From Patescibacteria group bacterium (lineage in GTDB: Bacteria > Patescibacteriota > Microgenomatia > Curtissbacterales > GWA2-41-24), in the NCBI GenBank assembly GCA_038063735.1, contig JBBTUN010000002.1:13321-77320 (forward strand): DNA of 64,000 nucleotides, in the 5' to 3' direction. Positions 3,095-38,561 of the stretch are shown piece after piece. A program made the position numbers and the translations under genes. The number at the start of each line of letters is the position of its first letter. The first letter of the stretch is position 1. The notes beneath the pieces were generated by a model, which had not been told where the DNA came from, ran no database searches, and worked only from the letters and a program-made list of their open reading frames with translations.

Positions 3095-4486
3095 ATGAAC
3101 GATGTCCAGGTAACTGATTACAAATACGGTTTTTCCAAGCCGGAGAATTATGTTTTTAAATCCAAACGTGGTTTGGATGTTGGTGTGGTGGAAGAAATTT
3201 CTTCTATGAAGGGTGAACCTGTGTGGATGAGGGATTTGCGCATAAAAGCATTGGGTATTTTTGAAAAAAAGAAAATGCCGAGTTGGGGTGCGGATTTGTC
3301 TTCCATTGACTTTGACAACATTTTCTACTACATAAAGCCCACAGATAACCAAAAAACAGATTGGCGGGATCTGCCCAAAGAAATTAAAGATACTTATGAC
3401 GCAATCGGAATTCCGGAGGCGGAGCGGAATCTACTAGCGGGGGTTACTGCTCAATATGAAAGTGAGGCGGTTTACCATTCTTTCCAGAAAAAATGGGAAG
3501 ACATGGGCGTTATTTTTTGCGATATGGATACAGCGCTAAAAAAATATCCGGATATTGTCAAATCTTATTTCGGAAGAAGCATTCCGGCAGCCGACAATAA
3601 ATTTGCAGCCTTAAATTCTGCGGTTTGGTCTGGCGGTTCTTTTATCTACGTGCCTCCCGGGATAAAAGTCGATATTCCACTGCAAGCGTATTTTAGGATT
3701 AATGCTGCCAACATGGGGCAGTTTGAAAGGACGCTGATTATTGTGGACGAAGGCGCGTATGTACATTATGTCGAAGGTTGCACGGCGCCGGTTTATTCAA
3801 CGGATTCGCTGCATGCTGCGGTTGTTGAGATTTTTGTCAAAAAGGGCGCGAGGTGCAGGTATACAACTATCCAAAATTGGAGCAATAACGTTTACAACCT
3901 TGTGACCAAGCGGGCGTTTGTAGAAGAAGATGGCGTAATGGAATGGGTGGACGGTAATTTGGGAAGTAAGATTACCATGAAATATCCGAGCTGTTATTTG
4001 GTTGGGCGAGGTGCGCGGGGAGAAATTTTGTCTTTGGCACTGGCGGGGTCTGGCCAACACCAGGATGCGGGCGGAAAGTTAGTTTTTTTGGCGCCGGATA
4101 CAAGCGGGGAGATTATTTCCAAGTCAGTTAGTGTTGGAACGGGTAGGACTTCTTATCGCGGTTTGGTTAAAATAATCAAAAATGCGCAGAGGGTGAAGTG
4201 CAATGTGCGCTGTGATGCGCTGGTTATTGATGAGGAAAGTCGATCGGACACGTATCCGACAATGGAAGTTGCGGAGGATAATGTGCAGATTGGGCACGAG
4301 GCGAGTGTTTCGCGAATTGGCGAGGAGCAACTTTTCTATTTGATGAGTAGAGGTTTAACGGAGGTTGAGGCAACGTCTCTTATAGTAAATGGCTTCATCG
4401 AGCCGATTGTTAAAGAATTGCCGCTTGAATATGCAGTGGAGTTGAATCGGTTGATAAATTTAAGTATGGAAGGAGCGGTAGGATAA
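3095..4486 (+). CDS. sufB: Fe-S cluster assembly protein SufB
   Basis: 463 aa; C-terminal ...RGLVKI..N.....C..C.ALVID.....TYP..EV......[28 protein letters not shown] is characteristic of SufB. Confidence 0.9.
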
Positions 4487-4950: not shown

Positions 4951-5363
4951 CTGAAGATTTGATCGCTCAAGCGGAGAGAGCTGCATACCATGAAGACTAC
5001 CGGAATTTCCGAGTTCGATTAGAGACTGAAACGTTTTTGGCAGTACATGGTTTATTAAAAGTCGATAAAATTTTAGAAGAAACTGATCTTCATAACAGAC
5101 AATTGTCTTTAGGAGAAGGACTTTTTACTATGCTGGCAGACAGGTTTAGAGACGCAATGCGCAAGGCGGAAGATCATGGTACGGAAACAATTGAAGTCGA
5201 TTTAAGCTACAGGGAATTGAATACGTTAGGAGATGTAGCAGTAGTCAAGGGAAATGCTGCTTTGGCACCTTATGTCTTAAACTTGAATGGGGCGTTTGTT
5301 GCTGCGGGTGGGCGCGATAATCAAAGACTGAGAGCGTATTTTGAAATGCTTACAGGGATATGA
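4944..5363 (+). CDS. hypothetical protein (cassette 2)
   Basis: 139-aa ORF; its start ATGGGGG lies immediately after repeat copy R1, which carries the RBS AAGAGG. Confidence 0.45.
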   Translation: MGAEDLIAQAERAAYHEDYRNFRVRLETETFLAVHGLLKVDKILEETDLHNRQLSLGEGLFTMLADRFRDAMRKAEDHGTETIEVDLSYRELNTLGDVAVVKGNAALAPYVLNLNGAFVAAGGRDNQRLRAYFEMLTGI

Positions 5364-5429: not shown

Positions 5430-5990
5430 ATGAACGAGATTTTAGCGACCGCTGACTTTACAGACGAGGTTTTTGATGATGTTTATTTAAATTATTTATC
5501 GGATGCGGCGATTGCACATTTGGTGTTTGGTGTCGAAAGCGTATTAAGGTTAAATCAAGAAGCAGAGCCTAGGCTTGATTTTAACTTAAAACCAGCTCAT
5601 CCACTATTTGAGTATGACATTATGAGTAAATCTAGGCCGGATTGGCAGGATTGGAAACAAGTGCTTTTGCATCACGAAAGTTATAGTCAAATTTCCAAGT
5701 CGATGGAAGAAACCATTGGTTCTCCACCATATGCTTTTGGTTATTTAAAAGGAAAATTGCTTTTGTTAACTGCGAAAGATGCGGATACGATTAAATATGG
5801 CACGAGTTTATTTTGGGCATACTTAGATGGTGATTGTGAAGTTTCGGAAGACGGGGAATATATAAAAAGACTGATGCAACTATCGAGGGGAGTTTCTCCG
5901 GAATTTCATTATAGGCATGATATTCCTGTAGAAGACAAACAAGGTGGGGGAAAGTGGAGATCATTACTAAGAAGGATCAAAGGTAGCTAA
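5430..5990 (+). CDS. hypothetical protein (cassette 3)
   Basis: 186-aa ORF, RBS ggaggggaggatggtaggATG; followed by repeat copy R3. Confidence 0.45.
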   Translation: MNEILATADFTDEVFDDVYLNYLSDAAIAHLVFGVESVLRLNQEAEPRLDFNLKPAHPLFEYDIMSKSRPDWQDWKQVLLHHESYSQISKSMEETIGSPPYAFGYLKGKLLLLTAKDADTIKYGTSLFWAYLDGDCEVSEDGEYIKRLMQLSRGVSPEFHYRHDIPVEDKQGGGKWRSLLRRIKGS

Positions 5991-19897: not shown

Positions 19898-20236
19898 ATG
19901 TTTTTCTTAACTCCAATTTTGGCGGGAATAATTTTGGTTGGTACTCTTGGTGCTGGTACTTATGTAACCGAGCAAGCAAGGGAAGTTGTCTCTAAATATA
20001 ATTTATCGCAAATTAGTCATGTTTTGGAAATTTATTATGTGGAGGATAGCAAATATCCGCAGAGTTTGGAAGAGGTTGTTAGAAGAGGAGAGGTTAAGAA
20101 TTTAAACGTGGCGGATTATTCGTATGAGCTTTTTGGGGATACAAAAGATGTGAAGGTTTGTGAGATTAAAATAAATATTTGTTGGACTTCTTTAGTGGGT
20201 CTGGATGGATTCGAACCATCGACGTCCACCTTATAA
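19898..20236 (+). CDS. type IV pilin/pseudopilin-like protein (3' extent uncertain)
   Basis: N-terminal hydrophobic helix ILAGIILVGTLGAGTYV followed by ...YPQSLEEV, typical of pilin-like proteins. The ORF runs antisense into the tRNA at 20195-20267, so the real stop may be earlier. Confidence 0.35.
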   Translation: MFFLTPILAGIILVGTLGAGTYVTEQAREVVSKYNLSQISHVLEIYYVEDSKYPQSLEEVVRRGEVKNLNVADYSYELFGDTKDVKVCEIKINICWTSLVGLDGFEPSTSTL

Positions 20237-20267
20237 GAGTGGCGCTCTAACCGCTGAGCTACAGACC
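20195..20267 (-). tRNA. tRNA with anticodon UAU (reads AUA; tRNA-Ile)
   Basis: Reverse complement GGGTCTG-TA-GCTC-AGCGGTTA-GAGC-G-CCACT-CTTATAA-GGTGG-ACGTC-GATGG-TTCGAAT-CCATC-CAGACCC-A folds as a cloverleaf with 7/4/5/5-bp stems and a T-loop TTCGAAT; anticodon positions 34-36 are TAT. Confidence 0.7.
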
Positions 20268-20303
20268 CAATAATTTACTGGCAAGTATACCAAAATTTAT
20301 ATT

Positions 20304-31938: not shown

Positions 31939-32814
31939 TTATAGCTGTTCGAGTTTGAGTTTTTCCTCACCCTTAGGAAGTTGAATAAGGGAGAGGTAGC
32001 GCTCGGTAGTTGATAGCCTTTTGTGGCCGGCTATTTTAGAAATCAGAACGAGGGATGCTCCGCTTGAGAGGTGGTGCGCAACCCAGGTGTGTCTAAGGTC
32101 GTTGACTTTAGCGCCGGTTATGCCTGCTTTTCTGTAATATCTGTCGATTGCCGTTCTTATGTTTCTAACCAGAAGCGGTTTGCCGGTTTTTGTTACGAAT
32201 AGGGCTCTATTTGTAGTTTTTGGTCTTATTTCCAGATACTTTTTAAGGGCATTTTCGGCTGCCTTATTTAAAGGAACTGTTCTTTCTCCACGATTTTCTT
32301 GAGGGCGTACGAAAAGATGGCCTTCTTTGTTTTCTTCTCCAAAAAAGACATCGTCGATTCGTAAATTTGCGAGTTCACCAATTCTAACGCCTGTTTGAAG
32401 AAGAATTTCAATAATTGCGGCAATTCGAACGTCGTCTCTGGCTGCATCTCTTAGTGCTCTGTATTCAATAGGGGTTAGGATTCTGGGAGGTTTAGTTTCG
32501 AATTTTGGGTGTTCAACAAGGGAAGCCGGGTCGTCGGTTATGTATTCTTTGATTTTAAGAAAACGGAAGAACGTTTTTGTGGAATTTAGCTTTCTGGAGA
32601 GTGATTTTTGAGTGTAGCCCGTAGATTGCAGTTTTTCCAGGAAGTTCTTAATATCGTCCGGTTTTATTTCGTGGACGTGCACCTTTTGAAGGTCGGCGAA
32701 GAATTTGATCAGCTGTTCTATGTCCTTGCCGTATGCAAGCACAGTTGCCGATGCTCTTTTCCTGCCTTTTAAATGGTCAACAAATTCCTGATGTGCTTCT
32801 TGTAATTTCTTCAT
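31939..32814 (-). CDS. tyrosine site-specific recombinase (XerC/XerD/integrase family)
   Basis: C-terminal catalytic region ...LRHTWVAHHLSSGASLVLISKIAGHKRLSTTERYLSL (R..H..R.Y motifs) and an N-terminal SAM-like domain. Confidence 0.8.
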   Translation of the reverse strand: MKKLQEAHQEFVDHLKGRKRASATVLAYGKDIEQLIKFFADLQKVHVHEIKPDDIKNFLEKLQSTGYTQKSLSRKLNSTKTFFRFLKIKEYITDDPASLVEHPKFETKPPRILTPIEYRALRDAARDDVRIAAIIEILLQTGVRIGELANLRIDDVFFGEENKEGHLFVRPQENRGERTVPLNKAAENALKKYLEIRPKTTNRALFVTKTGKPLLVRNIRTAIDRYYRKAGITGAKVNDLRHTWVAHHLSSGASLVLISKIAGHKRLSTTERYLSLIQLPKGEEKLKLEQL

Positions 32815-33025
32815 TCAACTAACAATTTTTGGGCGAGAACTTTGTGCAGGTAAGTTCAGTGGCAAGCTGAAATTACGATTAGTATACTGCTTGCTATGGG
32901 CCTTGTCAAGAGTATTCAAATGGTGTTTGTGGATTCTTCTATAAGCTCACAGATTATAAACTCGCGGCCGTGCTTATGGCGCCTATCGGTTTTTAATAAT
33001 GCTAAGCGCGTATCTTATATATATA

Positions 33026-33385
33026 ATGGTAAGGATGAGAAGAAATTTAATACTGTTGTTGGCGATTGTTGTTGCAGTGTTTTTAGGTATAAATAGTGTA
33101 AAGCGGATACTTTCGCTTCATGGGACGAGTCAGCAGGTGGAGGAGGAAGAAGCTCATCTTGAAAAACTAAGAAAGGAAAATGAGGCTTTAAAGCAGGAGC
33201 TTGAGTATAAAAAGAGTGAAAGGTTTGCAGAAGGTGAGATTAGAAACAAATTGGGAATGGCAAAGGATGGGGAAGAGGTTGTGGTGATACCAAAAGAAGA
33301 AGAGAGTAGTAAACAGGAAACAGAAAGCAAGAAACCGGTTGCGAATTGGAAGAAATGGCAAAAATTATTCTTTGGAAATGGTTAA
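33026..33385 (+). CDS. FtsB/DivIC-like septum formation initiator
   Basis: Single N-terminal TM helix LILLLAIVVAVFLGI followed by the coiled coil HLEKLRKENEALKQELEYKKS. Confidence 0.5.
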   Translation: MVRMRRNLILLLAIVVAVFLGINSVKRILSLHGTSQQVEEEEAHLEKLRKENEALKQELEYKKSERFAEGEIRNKLGMAKDGEEVVVIPKEEESSKQETESKKPVANWKKWQKLFFGNG

Positions 33386-33438
33386 TTTGATTGACAAAGA
33401 GTTGTTTTGAAGCTAGAATTAACGTTTGAAATTAATCG

Positions 33439-33510
33439 ACGCGGGGTAGAGAAACGGCATCTCGGGAGGCTCATAATCTCCAGAAGTGGGTTCGACTCCC
33501 GCCCCCGCTA
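33439..33510 (+). tRNA. tRNA with CAT anticodon (candidate initiator tRNA-Met)
   Basis: CGCGGGG-TA-GAGA-AACGGCA-TCTC-G-GGAGG-CTCATAA-TCTCC-AGAA-GTGGG-TTCGACT-CCCGC-CCCCGCT-A. Stems are consistent with a cloverleaf; anticodon CAT; positions 1 and 72 are unpaired (C-U), as in bacterial initiator tRNAs. Confidence 0.5.
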
Positions 33511-33631
33511 CAAATTTCGGCAGAAATTTGGAGCGAGGTTCGCTCAAATTTTTGAGCGACCCGCTACACGTAAACCAGACTCGGCAAAGTTGTCGGGTCT
33601 TTTTTTGTTTGATACAATTCAGTCAGCTCAT

Positions 33632-33705
33632 GGCAGGGTAGCTCAGTTGGTTAGAGCGTGGCACTCATAACGCCAAGGTCGTGGGTTCGATCCCCACCCC
33701 TGCTA
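33632..33705 (+). tRNA. tRNA with CAT anticodon (Met elongator or Ile2)
   Basis: GGCAGGG-TA-GCTC-AGTTGGTTA-GAGC-G-TGGCA-CTCATAA-CGCCA-AGGTC-GTGGG-TTCGATC-CCCAC-CCCTGCT-A: canonical cloverleaf with GG in the D-loop and TTCGATC T-loop. Confidence 0.8.
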
Positions 33706-33771
33706 CACTTTTTAAGTGATTATACACTCTACGATTGACAAGACCCATAATATCGTATACAATCCACCGTT

Positions 33772-34296
33772 ATGAATGAAGTAATGTTCGGTGAACGCGC
33801 GACTGTTGAGGCAGTAAAACAGGCTTCCAAAGATTATTTAAGACAAGCAAAAGCAAGAAGAGTGGCTGCGCATGTGGCGCGGGAAAAGGCCAACGTTGGT
33901 TTTCGGATGCTTCGTCACGGGAAATTTGTAAGGATTATACAGGAGGATGCGGCATCGTATTGGCATGGGGCCGCTGCTGAAAAAGTTGATGAAATAGTGT
34001 CTGGAGCAACTTCTCTTAGTTATTCTGAAGAACCAGAGGAAGACAGATTCGTTAAATGGGATTTGGAAATTGTTTCTGGTGGTAAAAAAATAAAAATGGG
34101 TGCTCGTCATTTTCTGGGAGGGCCTAGTTATGCAAGTGGATATATCGACCCGTTTGAGCATAAACCGTATGTTTTATATGAGGGAAAACCGGCTGGAGGC
34201 GAGGAGCTTTATACGACTACAGGAAGATTTAAAGATTTTATTGACAACCTGAAAAGCCAGGGTATTATTGGCACAAAAGTCGCAGTTAAGGCTTAA
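33772..34296 (+). CDS. hypothetical protein
   Basis: 174-aa ORF after the tRNAs; contains GGPSYASGY, resembling the repeat-encoded motif. Confidence 0.4.
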   Translation: MNEVMFGERATVEAVKQASKDYLRQAKARRVAAHVAREKANVGFRMLRHGKFVRIIQEDAASYWHGAAAEKVDEIVSGATSLSYSEEPEEDRFVKWDLEIVSGGKKIKMGARHFLGGPSYASGYIDPFEHKPYVLYEGKPAGGEELYTTTGRFKDFIDNLKSQGIIGTKVAVKA

Positions 34297-34328
34297 TTAT
34301 CACTCCCAGGCTTTGTCCGCTTATAAAT

Positions 34329-34358
34329 TTGACACTTTAAGATTTCAACTGATATAAT
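34329..34358 (+). promoter_or_regulatory. sigma70-like promoter TTGACA-18-TATAAT
   Basis: ttgacactttaagatttcaactgatataat: both hexamers are perfect consensus. Confidence 0.5.
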
Positions 34359-34563
34359 TCTGCTAGGTAATGCTCTTTTGAGGTGAAAGCTTAGCAGAGG
34401 GCAGACTGATCTGCTAAGCAGAAATTATTTCGCAGAGATTTCTGCGCATTTGTATTTAAATGAATATTAACTTAACAATTAACCGATTTTGGTTTTATTA
34501 CTTTGCTCGCTAAGGCGGGTTTTGTAGGTTGTTGAGCTAACTAAAACTTAAGAACAGATACAA
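34359..34563 (+). ncRNA. candidate structured ncRNA or regulatory leader (no ORF) between promoter and terminator
   Basis: Hairpins GCTTAGCAGA...TCTGCTAAGC, GCAGAAAT...ATTTCTGC and CGCAGAgatttTCTGCG; no ORF of 30 aa or more; ends at an intrinsic terminator. Confidence 0.3.
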
Positions 34564-34588
34564 GACTCGCGAGAATGCGAGTTTTTTT
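34564..34588 (+). terminator. rho-independent terminator
   Basis: GACTCGCgagaatGCGAGT followed by TTTTTTT. Confidence 0.6.
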
Positions 34589-34613
34589 GTGGTCTGAAAG
34601 TAGGTGAAACATT

Positions 34614-34898
34614 ATGGAAAGAAAAGAAAATTGTCAAAGACAAAGCGGTATGGATTGCCGAGGTTGCGATGTGGCGGTTGATATTGCAAAAAATGTATTA
34701 TCTAACCCTGGCGAATCTGTAGTTAAGTAGATTTTAGAAGTTGCGGCTGAGAGTTGTCCTGTAGACACAAAATTTCTATTGCACGGAGATTTTGCCGAAT
34801 TGATGGAAGTAGAGAAAAAAGTAATACAATTAAGAACGATAAATGGCGAACCTAGTACAAATACAGAAACATTTGCGTCTGTTGCAGCTGGACTTTAA
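34614..34898 (+). pseudogene. ferredoxin-like gene interrupted by an in-frame TAG at 34738-34740
   Basis: Translation MERKENCQRQSGMDCRGCDVAVDIAKNVLSNPGESVVK*ILEVAAESCPVDTKF...: both halves align with the intact ferredoxin at 9408-9638 (C.G..C ... AAESCP); RBS aggtgaaacattATG. Confidence 0.3.
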
Positions 34899-35298
34899 AG
34901 TAATTGACTTGGATCAGGAAGCTTTTACGGTTGCTGACGTGGTTGATGCTGGGATAAAGGTTGATGAAGTTGTAAAGACGCTGATCGTGCGTGTGGGCGA
35001 TGGATCTTTTATCGCACTCGCTCTGCGAGGGAATGATCGGGTGGATTTTAAAAAAGTGCGGAAGCTGTTTGGATCAAAAGCCGAGCTTGCAAAGCCGGAG
35101 GACGTTTTGAAGGTTGTGGGCGTGCCAATTGGTGCTGTTTGCCCAATTTTGGTTGGAGTGCCAGTGTATGTGGATAAGAATGTTATGGATTTGCAAAACG
35201 TGCATATGGGTTCGGGGGATTTGATGCATGGATTAGAAATGAAGCTTAAAGATTTATTAAAGGCGGTTGGAGAATATCAGGTAGAAGAATTAGCATAA
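34843..35298 (+). CDS. YbaK/ProX-family aminoacyl-tRNA deacylase
   Basis: 151 aa; ...KTLIVRVGDGSFIALALRGNDRVDFKKV...VGVPIGAVCPI resembles YbaK/EbsC deacylase domains. Confidence 0.6.
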   Translation: MANLVQIQKHLRLLQLDFKVIDLDQEAFTVADVVDAGIKVDEVVKTLIVRVGDGSFIALALRGNDRVDFKKVRKLFGSKAELAKPEDVLKVVGVPIGAVCPILVGVPVYVDKNVMDLQNVHMGSGDLMHGLEMKLKDLLKAVGEYQVEELA

Positions 35299-35307
35299 TT
35301 ATTTAAA

Positions 35308-35523
35308 ATGATGATAGAACAAGAAAATTTACAAAGAGGGTTGGTAGGTAAAGGTGTTTACTCATTCAAGTGCGTTGGTTGTGGAACAAATGAGCAAACA
35401 CGAGTAGTTGTTGAATCTGTTCAAGATCGAGGAGGTCGTATTATACGAACGACTAAGGTGCGTGTTTGCGACCCTTGTTCTGTGGATGGTCTTTCTGATG
35501 TTATGATGAGGGTGGAAATATGA
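35308..35523 (+). CDS. small zinc-ribbon protein
   Basis: 71 aa with CVGCG...(30 aa)...CDPC, i.e. C..C...C..C. Confidence 0.3.
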
Positions 35524-36524
35524 AAAAACGTATTTTGACAGGGGATAGGCCGACGGGGAAATTGCATTTGGGCCACTATGTCGGGTCACTTGCAAACAGG
35601 GTAAAGCTGCAACATGAATATGAAACTTTTATTATGGTTGCGGACGTCCAGGCCTTGACGGATAATTTTGAGCATCCGGAAAAACTGGGCGAAAATATTC
35701 GGGAAGTTGTTTTGGACTATCTTTCTGTTGGGATTGATCCTAAGGTTTCGACAATTTTTATTCAGTCCCAAGTTCCTCAAATTGCAGAGCTAACGGTTTT
35801 TTTTATGAATTTAGTGACTTTGGCACGGCTCGAGAGAAACCCGACGGTTAAGGATGAAATGAAACAAAAAGGGTATGGAGCCAATGTTCCTTTGGGGTTT
35901 TTGGCTTATCCGGTTTCTCAGGCTGCCGATATTGCGTTTTTGAAAGCAGATTTGGTGCCGGTTGGGGTTGACCAGGTGCCGATGATTGAGCAGACGCGCG
36001 AAATTGTGCGCAAGTTTAACGAGCTTTATGGAAAAGTCCTGGTGGAGCCGGAGGCGTTAGTTGGAGAGGTAGAAAGATTACCAGGGACTGATGGTAAAGC
36101 GAAGATGAGCAAGAGTTTGGGGAATGTTATTAATTTATCCGATGATCCCCAGACTGTCAGAAAACAGGTAATGGGCATGTATACGGATCCGGCGCGGGTC
36201 CATGGGGACGAACCGGGAGATGTTGAAAACAATCCGGTCTTTATATATCTTGATGCTTTTGCTTCAGAAAGTCACAAGTCACAAGTTATGAGTTATAAAT
36301 CAAAATACAAGGAGGGTAAGGTTAAAGATGTGGAGGTTAAGGAGTTTTTGGTTGGTGTTTTGGAGGAATTCTTGGAACCAATTAGGAAAAGAAGAAAAGA
36401 ATTTGAGAAGCAACCTGGTTTGGTCGATAAAATCTTGAAAGATGGGACAGAAAAAGCGAGAGCGGAGGCAGAAAAAACTTTAAAAGAGGTTAAAGCTGCC
36501 ATGAAAATTAGCTACTTTTCCTAA
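35520..36524 (+). CDS. trpS: tryptophanyl-tRNA synthetase
   Basis: [16 protein letters not shown] (HIGH-like) and KMSKS motifs with class I TrpRS-like architecture. Confidence 0.9.
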
Positions 36525-36587
36525 ACGTTTTTACATAGTTGTCTTTCTTCTTGATGCACATGTGGTTCTGGCAATTGGAGGTTTTCG

Positions 36588-38561
36588 GTGATAAAATATC
36601 CGATTACACGAATGAAATCCCAAGAACAAGACAAAATTCAAACTAATAATCAGCCAACTAATCCAAAAAAGGGTCCTATCCCCAAAGTTAATATGCCCAA
36701 AATCGGCAAAAAGACGTCCTGGCGGGGTTTTGCAATTTACGCGGTGTTTGGCCTTTTATTGTTTATTTTCTTTGCTGTTACTTCAAACCCTGCTGACCGG
36801 TTTTTGCCTGTTGAGCCGATTTCTACTGTAATAACAGACATCAAAAACGATAAGGTACAAAGCGTAGAAATTGATGGTAGCAAGATAAATGTAAAACTTA
36901 GGGATGGTAAAATTTATACTTCCAGAAAAGAAGACAATGAGTCTATCTTTGGTGCTCTTCAAGCAGGAGGTGCGGATCCAACAAAAGTTGCAATTACGGT
37001 GAAGGATAGGACAATGTCGGAAGCGTGGTTAACCCTTTTGACCACATTTTTACCACTTGGGATTATTATTCTTTTCTTCTTCTTCATTTTCCGTCAGGCA
37101 AGAGAGGGTGCGTCCAGTGTATTTTCGTTTGGACAGTCCAGGGCTAAGCAATTTTCGCGCGATATGCCCAAGATTACTTTCAAGGATGTTGCCGGTGTTG
37201 ATGAGGCGAAACAGGAGTTAATGGAGATTGTCGATTTTTTAAGACATTCGGAAAAATATAAAGCAATTGGAGCCAGGACTCCTAAAGGTGTACTTTTGGT
37301 AGGGCCTGCAGGTACCGGCAAGACTTTGCTGGCAAAGGCTGTTGCAGGTGAGGCAGGGGTACCGTTTTATTCGGTTGCAGGAAGTGAATTTATGGAAATG
37401 TTAGTAGGGGTGGGAGCCGCCCGTGTTCGGGATCTTTTTGCACAAGCCAAAAAGACGGCGCCTGCAATTATTTTTATAGACGAAATAGAGTCGATCGGTA
37501 GAGTGCGGGGTTCCGGCTTTAGTGGCGGACACGATGAGCGTGAACAAACCTTAAATCAAATACTGGTGGAAATGGATGGTTTTGCGCCGAACGAAAATGT
37601 AATGGTGATGGCGGCTACCAATAGGCCAGACATGCTAGACCCGGCACTAACTAGGCCGGGCAGGTTTGACAGGCGTGTTGCTCTGGACCTTCCGGACATT
37701 GAAGGCAGAAAGGCTATTATTCAGATTCATATGAAGGGTAAGCCGTTTGACAAGAATGTTGATATTGAAAGGTTGGCTAAGCGTACGGTTGGTTTTAGCG
37801 GTGCTGACCTTGCGAACATGCTTAACGAAGCGGCCATTTTAGCAGCCCGCGAAGCGCGTAAGGAAATAACCAATGTGGATTTGGAGGAAGCCGCAACAAA
37901 GACAAAATTGGGACCACAGAGAAAGAGAATGCAAAGCGAAGAAGAGAGAAAGATGACAGCTTATCACGAAGGAGGTCATGCAATTGTTGCTCATTTTCTG
38001 CCGAATGTTGACCCGGTACACAGAATTTCTATCGTTGCCCGTGCCAATACCGGAGGGCACACGGAGGTTCATCCACAGTTTGACAGAAACCTGGAAACAA
38101 AAACGAGGCTTTTGGACAGAATTGCGATGGCTTTGGGTGGTAGGGCGGCCGAAGAATTGATATTTCATGAGCTTACCAGTGGGGCGTCTTCCGATTTGCT
38201 GGTTGCAACTAATATTGCCCATGCGATGGTTGAGGAGCTTGGTATGAGTGATTTGGGGCCGACTGTGATGCAAGGGCGGGCGCAGTTTGGAATATGGCCT
38301 GTTCCGGGTGAGGGGGCACAAATGTCCCAAGATACGGCAGCTAAAGTTGACCGTGAGGTACAAAAAATGATTGATACCGGGTATAAAAAAGCGAAAGAAA
38401 CGCTTATTCGGCACAAGAAAGATTTGGATAAAGTTGCAGCGGCTCTTTTGGATCGCGAAACTTTGGAGCGTGACGACTTTGAGAAGATTGTTGGTAAACC
38501 TGCAACAAATGGTGAAGTAAAGTTTCATATTCCCAAAAAAACAAAGCCTGCTCAGGCTTAA
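36588..38561 (+). CDS. ftsH: ATP-dependent zinc metalloprotease FtsH
   Basis: Two TM helices, AAA module [13 protein letters not shown] / [14 protein letters not shown], and zinc site HEGGHA. Confidence 0.9.

Follow-up and report, generated by a model that had tools for sequence, protein, structure and literature searches.

A probable leader-peptide attenuator in front of a ybaK-trpS operon of an uncultivated Patescibacteria lineage

Described attenuators and the locus

Classical attenuators ahead of aminoacyl-tRNA synthetase (aaRS) genes have been documented for pheST, and single-gene candidates have been predicted in Streptomyces before trpS2 (S. avermitilis) and leuS (PMC1262725). We describe here a 64,000-nucleotide (nt) stretch of DNA from a Patescibacteria group bacterium (Microgenomatia, Curtissbacterales; GenBank assembly GCA_038063735.1, contig JBBTUN010000002.1, positions 13,321 to 77,320), hereafter the window, in which the interval between a promoter at 34329 and a terminator ending at 34588 is, judging from sequence and modelled folds, most probably a ribosome-mediated leader-peptide transcription attenuator of the E. 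coli trpL/pheM type that stands before a ybaK-trpS operon. A sequence-only reading had earlier taken the interval for a small RNA (sRNA), or for a riboswitch or attenuator leader, without an open reading frame (ORF). The attenuator part of that proposal holds in outline, as an antiterminator competes with the terminator in 12 of the 12 homologues folded and the same operon always lies downstream, but the sensor appears to be a translated leader peptide and not an ORF-less RNA.

The closest analogue, in logic and in peptide, is the leader of the E. coli pheST-ihfA operon (pheM), a leader-peptide attenuator before an aaRS operon in which, as in the window, an intrinsic terminator is preceded by an overlapping antiterminator. 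The PheM peptide has 14 amino acids (aa) and a Phe-rich run with one Tyr at its end, which may be compared with the endings ..KTFFFYFTR and ..TIWFRFYFTR of two relatives of the window (loci L107 and L092). The two systems differ in that the genes here are trpS and a YbaK-like deacylase gene rather than pheST, most leaders here contain one Trp codon together with 1-2 Tyr codons, no Shine-Dalgarno (SD) sequence precedes the leader AUG, and an extra invariant 5' box and hairpin are present. The lineage (Patescibacteria) is also unrelated, with no detectable sequence homology, and the Phe_leader model of the pheA leader (RF01859) scores 24.1 bits against a cut-off of 55. E. coli trpL (RF00513) shares the four-region logic, a stop codon just before region 2 and a Trp codon in region 1, and it is the best Rfam match, at a sub-threshold score and in an alignment that rests mainly on the terminator. 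There is, however, a single Trp codon here in place of a tandem pair, and a synthetase/editing operon in place of Trp biosynthesis. The Streptomyces trpS2 candidate is likewise a leader-peptide attenuator before a tryptophanyl-tRNA synthetase (TrpRS) gene outside the proteobacteria, but it and the leuS candidate, which are likened to the locus by description only, belong to another phylum, and the operon here starts with other genes and follows a mixed aromatic run.

In Firmicutes, trpS is usually controlled by a T-box riboswitch, which has in common with the window the choice of terminator or antiterminator in a trpS leader and, by inference, the same signal (tRNA charging). Unlike a T-box, the interval has no Stem I or specifier loop, no T-box sequence and no RF00230 match, and sensing would occur via the translating ribosome instead of direct tRNA binding. 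The Rfam scan that the sequence-only reading had recommended gave no family at gathering score at the leader interval, in the window or in four homologous loci. Lowering the threshold to E<=10 over 34250-34650 yielded sub-threshold leader families and chance matches only, with the Trp, Phe and Leu leader matches driven by the terminator (Trp_leader at 24.9 bits, E 0.006, against a gathering score of 41). The lack of a visible match to signal recognition particle RNA, 6S RNA or a T-box, noted in that reading, was borne out: none of these, and no riboswitch family, matched at gathering score or at E<=10. On these comparisons the element lies outside the Rfam Trp_leader and Phe_leader families and is not a T-box.

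The genomes of Patescibacteria, or the Candidate Phyla Radiation (CPR), are tiny, come from uncultivated organisms and are thought to be poor in regulators, and to our knowledge almost nothing is known about the control of gene expression in them. No description of a leader-peptide attenuator in CPR/Patescibacteria was found in the literature searched, and the absence is limited to that literature; the mechanism is textbook, and it is its occurrence before a tRNA-editing/TrpRS operon in an uncultivated groundwater lineage that was not found described there. Such an attenuator would imply that this lineage couples transcription to translation, uses intrinsic termination for regulation and monitors the charging of aromatic tRNAs. 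It would also offer a lead on an uncharacterised YbaK/ProX-type deacylase, which may be needed when aromatic amino acids are scarce, and would correct an annotation risk, the interval being otherwise filed as an sRNA or orphan riboswitch candidate.

The predicted leader peptide and proposed four-region switch

The window was compared with 14 distinct homologous leaders from related Microgenomates/Curtissbacteria genomes, several of which carry the name Curtissbacteria (Microgenomates), plus one paralogue (in locus L106). The relatives were obtained by a metagenome scan with the YbaK-like protein, by a protein search with contig look-ups and, for two loci, by a TrpRS scan of species genomes, which gave mostly cross-phylum matches (55-66% identity) and was useful for L005 and L012 only. 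The YbaK-like proteins of the 14 loci are 58-83% identical to that of the window. Partial-transcript folds covered 12 homologues; the plain alignment was made with MAFFT and analysed with RNAalifold, which gives the apical 1:2 helix and the terminator only, and the long-range helices come from per-sequence folds and anchored mini-alignments.

The claim that the interval is without an ORF is correct for plus-strand ORFs of at least 25 aa lying wholly inside 34359-34590, but a 17-codon ORF is present (Table 1), with the codons ATG AAT ATT AAC TTA ACA ATT AAC CGA TTT TGG TTT TAT TAC TTT GCT CGC TAA. Six of its 17 residues are aromatic, compared with 8.8% in the proteins of the window (Trp 0.89%), and these form the run FWFYYF (34487-34504; Trp codon 34490-34492). 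The sequence-only reading had named a small protein encoded in the relatives as evidence against its RNA element and, formally, an in-frame ORF is what 14 of 14 relatives carry: in every one of them, one frame has an ORF that begins with ATG and crosses the aromatic run, and the other two frames have none. All 14 ORFs close with an aromatic run. The stop codon is at one fixed site in 13 leaders, where TAA, TAG and TGA are all used and a sense codon never is; ORF length varies between 45 and 84 nt, always by whole codons, and third-position changes are synonymous (TTT/TTC, TAT/TAC). Each peptide has 2-5 Phe, 1-2 Tyr and 0-1 Trp codons and, given this dominance of Phe, the sensor is read as one of general aromatic tRNA charging, not of Trp alone.

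What we consider the strongest single evidence that the reading frame is conserved comes from the sequence of the L106 paralogue (5436-5588), which has its own TTGACA promoter, encodes MIRSRRAFWFYFTFQA followed by a stop, and has the same four-region layout as the window. All of its stems have been rewritten (CCAAGC-uua-GCUUGG ... CAACCAAGC-uguuaau-GGCUUGG-U7, with CCAAGC/GCUUGG in place of CUCGC/GCGAG), yet the peptide motif ..AFWFYFTFQA before the stop is kept.

The leader ORF overlaps an RNA that can fold in mutually exclusive ways. A 1:2 hairpin pairs the ORF with sequence past its stop codon, and the 2:3 helix takes up the 5' arm of the 3:4 terminator, so that the antiterminator excludes the terminator and the 1:2 hairpin excludes the antiterminator in all 12 homologues folded. 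In RNA extending to just before region 3, every one of the 12 homologues forms the 1:2 hairpin, with energies of -19 to -24.5 kcal/mol. Its apical helix is ACUCGC : GCGRGU across homologues, with the stop in the loop, its middle helix pairs a Tyr codon (UAC/UAU) with GUA, and its basal helix pairs codons 4-8 (consensus CUUAAAAAC) with GGUUUUUAAG, which lies immediately 3' of region 2, each sequence having unbroken runs of 6-12 bp; the Trp-Phe codons lie within an unpaired internal loop in most of the homologue folds. The stop codon ends 1 nt before region 2, and the aromatic codons begin 10-28 nt upstream of it (the Trp codon 25 nt). In the window, the stop sits in the loop of the small apical hairpin GCUCGC-UAAG-GCGGGU, which is followed by UUUU; this resembles a hairpin-dependent pause site and, by analogy, could synchronise polymerase and ribosome.

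With region 1 masked, as a stalled ribosome would mask it, the 2:3 antiterminator folds at -22.3 kcal/mol in the window, and all 12 homologues fall between -19.8 and -24.1 kcal/mol. The minimum free energy (MFE) structure of the whole leader in the window is the antiterminator (GCGGGUUUUGUA, 34515-34526, with UACAAGACUCGC, 34559-34570) and not the terminator, and the full-length MFE structures of the homologues are either 1:2 plus 3:4 or 2:3, depending on the sequence, a split between two states that would be expected of a balanced switch. The terminator reported in the sequence-only reading (AAGACTCGC-gagaat-GCGAGTTTT with a T-run) is present at 34562-34588. Folded alone it reaches -11.5 kcal/mol (-10.7 to -13.6 kcal/mol in the 12 homologues), RNAalifold predicts it in 12 of 12 sequences, with the top pair changed on both sides in 5, and it is kept between leader ORF and structural genes in all homologues. 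The TTGACA-18-TATAAT promoter likewise stands, with 12 of 12 consensus positions, a TG-extended -10 and the rank of top promoter-like site in 32000-38000; the arrangement TTGACAC...TGATATAAT recurs at equal distance in the homologous leaders, and transcription is predicted to start near 34365. As had also been noted, the next gene follows closely behind the terminator (ribosome-binding site AGGTGA 34602-34607, ATG 34614). The RNA of 34364-34590 (227 nt) as a whole folds at -68.9 kcal/mol against a shuffle mean of -49.9 (z = -4.75), and none of 200 shuffles was as low. A YbaK-like gene lies downstream of the leader in the same orientation in all 14 loci, an association that is partly built in, since the loci were mostly found by searching with the YbaK-like protein (L005 via the TrpRS scan).

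If the interval acts as a leader-peptide attenuator, polymerase starting near 34365 would make the 5' box, hairpin A and then the 17-codon leader ORF, whose codons 4-8 and last codons would pair past the stop codon to give the long 1:2 hairpin with its pause-like apex. A ribosome on the leader ORF would open this hairpin. When charged tRNA-Phe, -Tyr and -Trp are plentiful, the ribosome would arrive at the stop (34511-34513) and mask region 2, or the 1:2 hairpin would re-form, after which the 3:4 terminator would fold and transcription would halt at 34588. When one aromatic tRNA is poorly charged, the ribosome would stall in the FWFYYF run with region 1 covered and region 2 free, the 2:3 antiterminator would form in place of the terminator, and polymerase would read through into the Cys-rich ORF, the YbaK-like gene, the zinc-ribbon ORF and trpS. 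On the geometry of the E. coli trp model, stalling on the first four or five aromatic codons would leave the basal helix unwound and region 2 open for 2:3 pairing, and a ribosome held at the last Phe codon (34502) would probably start to cover region 2. The amino acids sensed, the ribosome positions, the pausing and the rise of read-through on starvation are what we infer by analogy.

Several observations weigh against this mechanism. An SD-like sequence was found within 20 nt upstream of the leader AUG in 0 of 14 homologues, while ordinary genes here have strong GGAGGTGA sites, and the only SD-like element, GAGGUG (34380-34385), is 74 nt upstream, so that no ribosome-binding site for efficient translation of the leader ORF is evident. 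The codon run is mixed, with Phe dominant and a single Trp codon that is missing in 3 of 14 leaders (L107, L108 and L111), and the operon has no Phe- or Tyr-specific gene, trpS corresponding to the Trp codon. In three loci (L005, L102 and L107) an opposite-strand gene separates trpS from the leader/ybaK unit, so the link between leader and trpS is not universal. The evidence from covariation also has limits: in the basal 1:2 helix both sides are changed in 11 of 15 pairs, 1 of 500 shuffles reaches the score and 77.6% of cells are paired, against 29-53% in slid registers, but the register in the anchored mini-alignment was picked per sequence, which biases the test. In the 2:3 helix, ungapped complementarity extends to 8-14 of 14 positions in all 14 sequences, but the changes are mostly of the G-U/A-U type, so that covariation is thin and support comes mainly from conservation.

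A different use of the leader peptide would be that of a nascent-peptide sensor of the TnaC, SecM or Erm-leader type, in which a C-terminal (W)F-x-Y-F-T-R would arrest the ribosome from within the exit tunnel when a small molecule is present (a free aromatic amino acid, for instance), and the arrest, rather than tRNA charging, would select terminator or antiterminator. The far better conservation of the C-terminal half of the peptide than of the N-terminal half, the fixed place of the stop codon in a hairpin loop, and the retention of the FWFYF motif in the L106 paralogue despite different RNA stems would all suit such a sensor. However, the aromatic run and the stop codon are 6, 7, 8 or 16 codons apart, depending on the leader, and this variability fits codon sensing better than a fixed arrest site; three lineages have Phe or Tyr in place of Trp, and the Thr-Arg codons fall on region 1, whose ACUCGC repeats region 3, an overlap that accounts for their conservation with no need of a role for the peptide. 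Runs of codons for related amino acids are, moreover, a hallmark of starvation sensing. We consider the nascent-peptide sensor improbable, and keep to ribosome stalling on aromatic codons as the reading of the leader peptide.

Table 1. Features of the leader and operon in the window, and leader peptides of the homologous loci (each peptide is followed by a stop codon)
Feature	Position	Strand	Details
Sigma-70-type promoter	34329-34358	+	-35 TTGACA 34329-34334; 18-nt spacer; TG-extended -10 TATAAT 34353-34358
5' box (module A)	34369-34385	+	AATGCTCTTTTGAGGTG; SD-like GAGGUG and 3-codon mini-ORF AUG CUC UUU UGA
Hairpin A (module A)	34389-34398, 34410-34419	+	GCTTAGCAGA, apical GGGCAGA, TCTGCTAAGC
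Hairpin CGCAGA-gatt-TCTGCG	34431-34446	+	Weakly terminator-like; missing from 14/14 aligned homologous leaders
Leader-peptide ORF	34460-34513	+	MNINLTINRFWFYYFAR; 17 codons; ATG 34460-34462; stop TAA 34511-34513
1:2 hairpin, anti-antiterminator and probable pause hairpin	34471-34536	+	Partial-transcript fold -20.9 kcal/mol
1:2 basal helix	34471-34480 : 34527-34536	+	CTTAACAATT : GGTTGTTGAG
1:2 middle helix	34499-34501 : 34524-34526	+	TAC : GTA
1:2 apical helix	34505-34510 : 34515-34520	+	GCTCGC : GCGGGT; stop codon in loop
2:3 antiterminator	34515-34526 : 34559-34570	+	GCGGGTTTTGTA : TACAAGACTCGC; 12 bp
3:4 intrinsic terminator	34562-34588	+	AAGACTCGC-GAGAAT-GCGAGTTTT; T-run 34582-34588
First gene, small Cys-rich protein	34614-34898	+	94 aa in sister strains; in-frame TAG 34728-34730 here
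YbaK/ProX-type aminoacyl-tRNA editing-domain protein	34843-35298	+	151 aa; PF04073, 91.8 bits
Zinc-ribbon-like ORF	35308-35523	+	71 aa; two CxxC pairs; no family match; 4-nt overlap with trpS start
trpS, tryptophan--tRNA ligase	35520-36524	+	334 aa; TIGR00233 284 bits (cut-off 177), PF00579; last operon gene in window
Leader peptide, L092			MKLGLKHTIWFRFYFTR; TAG stop
Leader peptide, L095			MENNLKHTIWFYFTR
Leader peptide, L103 and L096			MENNLKHTVWFYFTR
Leader peptide, L094			MKLDLNSNKVFWFFYFTR
Leader peptide, L100			MKSNLNSSRVFWFFYFTR
Leader peptide, L102			MKLDLGSNNVFWFFYITR; TGA stop
Leader peptide, L101			MNKDLKTLKNFWFFYFTR
Leader peptide, L105			MTFDLKLLQNFWFYYFTR
Leader peptide, L005			(GTG)RDLKTQNFWFFYVTR; GTG start
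Leader peptide, L107			MLVSLKTFFFYFTR; no Trp
Leader peptide, L108			MKKDLRTFQYFYFTR; no Trp
Leader peptide, L111			MLIIRTTLHNFFKFFFTRKAAGYVVVR; no Trp; ORF continues through region 2

The conserved 5' module

The first 55 nt of the leader transcript contain a second conserved element, here called module A (34369-34419), which is made up of the box AAUGCUCUUUUGAGGUG and hairpin A (34389-34419). Two alignments of it were used, A2 with 13 sequences and A5 with 15, the latter fitted to the structure of model R1, which matches 15 distinct loci at 41-74 bits. The 15-nt box core TGCTCTTTTGAGGTG is invariant in 13 of 13 sequences of A2 and 15 of 15 of A5, and, with as many as 3 mismatches allowed, the 64-kb window has a single copy of the box. 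Degeneration of the box is confined to the L108/L109 lineage, which retains an intact attenuator. The GAGGUG within the box is the same SD as that of the genes of these genomes, and the mini-ORF shows a synonymous change (CUU) in one lineage and a Phe to Leu change in a sister strain.

Of the stems listed in the sequence-only reading, GCTTAGCAGA/TCTGCTAAGC, or hairpin A, is real, conserved and covarying. On A5, 96.6% of cells are paired, both sides differ in 13 cells and none of 500 shuffles reaches its covariation score, counts that lean towards the structure to which that alignment was fitted. The apex of the hairpin across members is GGG(C/U)AGA, and U5-U9 follows the hairpin in about half of them. 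The two other stems, GCAGAAAT/ATTTCTGC and CGCAGA-gatt-TCTGCG (34420-34446), are present in none of the 14 aligned homologous leaders, and the second of them (34431-34446) was probably inserted into the spacer. Only in the rearranged L106 copy does a spacer of this kind (AGAAATTATTTC) recur, and the hairpin behind it is different and stronger.

Module A is also found without a leader peptide in two loci. The L106 copy (3571-3639, on the opposite, minus strand) stands alone in a rearranged locus, upstream of a tRNA(CAU) gene, and comes with a promoter of its own and a strong terminator (AGACCC-gaagatt-CGGGTCT-T7). In L012 (1423-1475) the hairpin is followed by U9 and lies about 100 nt before trpS, beside a 100-N scaffold gap. 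With one locus beside a gap and the other rearranged, both stand-alone cases may be relics. The N-runs beside module A in L012 and before trpS in L005 were considered as masked features and set aside as apparent scaffold gaps.

Our best guess is that module A serves as a 5' stabiliser or as a ribosome standby site, the leader AUG having no SD of its own. It is less likely, though still to be reckoned with, that module A is a separate, undescribed functional RNA of Microgenomates (to which the 30S subunit, a protein or a small ligand could bind), which would act as a first checkpoint through leaky termination at hairpin A or through ribosome loading onto the SD-less leader ORF, and which would also occur as a stand-alone small RNA (L106, L012). 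If this were true then, together with the serial Trp leader peptides described below, these reduced genomes would run multi-layer sensing of tRNA charging around a YbaK-type editing enzyme.

Three further ideas about the box gained no support. A box:loop pseudoknot (UGCUCU:AGGGCA) was attractive in duplex predictions and proved no better than shuffled loops (p 0.6-0.9), and it partly conflicts with an extended hairpin apex. A role of the SD-like box as a hairpin-bridged SD for the leader AUG would leave a spacing, without the hairpins, of still 16-27 nt, which varies between leaders. An ORF read from a TTG in the box shares the frame of the leader peptide only in L092, and this idea was rejected.

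A protein bound at module A (TrpRS, the YbaK-like protein or a TrpR-like protein) might also exert control, for example as autoregulation, in addition to or instead of the leader-peptide switch. An invariant box would agree with this, as would module A standing by itself in L106 and, immediately before trpS, in L012, and the presence of a Trp_repressor-family gene (PF01371) in the L103 operon. However, the box shows neither a repeat nor a palindrome of the kind usual in protein operators, a TrpR-like gene was found in one locus only, and the stand-alone cases, next to a gap and in a rearranged locus, may be relics, all of which makes protein-mediated control at this site distinctly improbable.

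A switch that binds a ligand or a tRNA directly, whether a metabolite riboswitch or a T-box-like element, would place the sensor in the structured 5' half and let it set the choice between terminator and antiterminator. Invariance such as that of the box is typical of binding sites, and trpS is a common T-box target. The box is invariant over 15-17 nt among loci whose YbaK proteins are 58-83% identical, and it is followed by a covarying hairpin with a conserved apex, GGG(C/U)AGA. Yet neither the leader interval of the window nor four relatives gave an Rfam family at gathering score, no T-box appeared over 34250-34650 at E<=10, and a specifier loop and T-box sequence are absent. The spacers from module A to the switch vary in length (about 10-75 nt) and sequence, no pairing of the module to regions 1-4 was found, the box:loop pseudoknot was no better than shuffled loops, and the L108/L109 lineage keeps an intact attenuator with a decayed box. 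We give such a switch very little credence.

Equally hard to sustain is an independent, trans-acting sRNA of about 225 nt running from promoter to terminator with incidental downstream effects, for which the strong promoter, the efficient-looking terminator, the unusually low fold energy and the occurrence of module A with its own terminator in L106 might speak, as might attenuator-derived sRNAs known elsewhere (such as rnTrpL of Sinorhizobium), but the element lies directly upstream of the same operon in the same orientation in 14 of 14 homologues, its conserved antiterminator exactly overlaps the 5' arm of the terminator, the conserved feature of its 3' half is a reading frame, and nothing points to a trans-acting role of the terminated transcript, no search for target complementarity having been made.

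Operon, serial leader units and flanking genes

The genes behind the proposed attenuator were partly recognised in the sequence-only reading. The YbaK-like gene and trpS are confirmed by matches to PF04073 and TIGR00233, with the YbaK-like protein falling under the NCBIfam YbaK cut-off and having APE2540 and TTHA1699 as closest solved structures. The first gene, called ferredoxin-like, has no Pfam or NCBIfam match and is interrupted by a TAG in this strain. Among 10 near-identical contigs, TAG or TTG at 34728-34730 is the sole difference in 620 nt: 4 of the 10 have TTG (Leu) and a 94-aa product, and the window and the remaining strains have TAG and a 38-aa product. This is a nonsense polymorphism segregating in the population. 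The first ORF and the YbaK-like gene share 56 nt (34843-34898), read in different frames, at the end of the one and the start of the other, and the same overlap recurs in most relatives (gene end at locus position 4056, ybaK start at 4001).

The small ORFs vary across relatives, and the genes inserted between ybaK and trpS include one for an Asp/Glu racemase and, in L103, the Trp_repressor-family gene. The Trp_repressor-family gene (4993-5304) follows the YbaK-like gene, the genes called in L103 do not include trpS, and the family assignment suggests another tryptophan-related link of the locus.

Further units of promoter, leader peptide and terminator occur inside the ybaK-trpS region of relatives, in L101 (5857-5960 and 4464-4590), L106 (6580-6708 and 5460-5588), L095 (1413-1535), L093 (1551-1672), L092 (3490-3620) and L094 (3484-3607). 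Their peptides have a Trp in every case: MKLKNNFWWCKTN (tandem Trp, just before trpS), MKLKEENTNTRSNSWYSKTN, MCSLVGNNWIYTIIISH, MVNRPNSIIWINEIITPTGQ, MNRPIVMLIWIYRIITPTGQ, MNRPNVITRLSEGQVWIKIINPSGR and MKKILVDQYKWQSLPIREVCF, each followed by a stop. From their sequences these look like serial attenuators. In the window, 9 nt separate ybaK from the zinc-ribbon ORF, with no such unit between them.

Contigs of the metagenome-assembled genome GCA_964362505.1 and of Hainich groundwater assemblies (0.1-um filters) are identical to the window, the genome of which occurs in Hainich H51, and the leader is identical in the ten near-identical contigs. Gene order is kept across the relatives and the window (31939-33385 and the genes that follow), as a XerC-like integrase gene (minus strand), a DivIC-like gene, tRNAs, leader, ybaK, trpS, ftsH and a 5'-3' exonuclease gene, with lineage-specific insertions of riboflavin genes, a Fic gene and a DNA ligase gene. 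Upstream of the leader, the window has two tRNA(CAU) genes (33440-33510 and 33632-33705), near which are promoter-like and terminator-like sites (33391-33705), and then a 174-aa ORF without family match (33772-34296); in L095, unlike the window, the leader comes directly after a tRNA. Over the whole window, Rfam at gathering thresholds found three tRNAs only, and the third of these (20196-20268, minus strand) has the anticodon loop CUUAUAA and, from the Rfam alignment only, apparently the anticodon UAU (Ile, AUA-reading).

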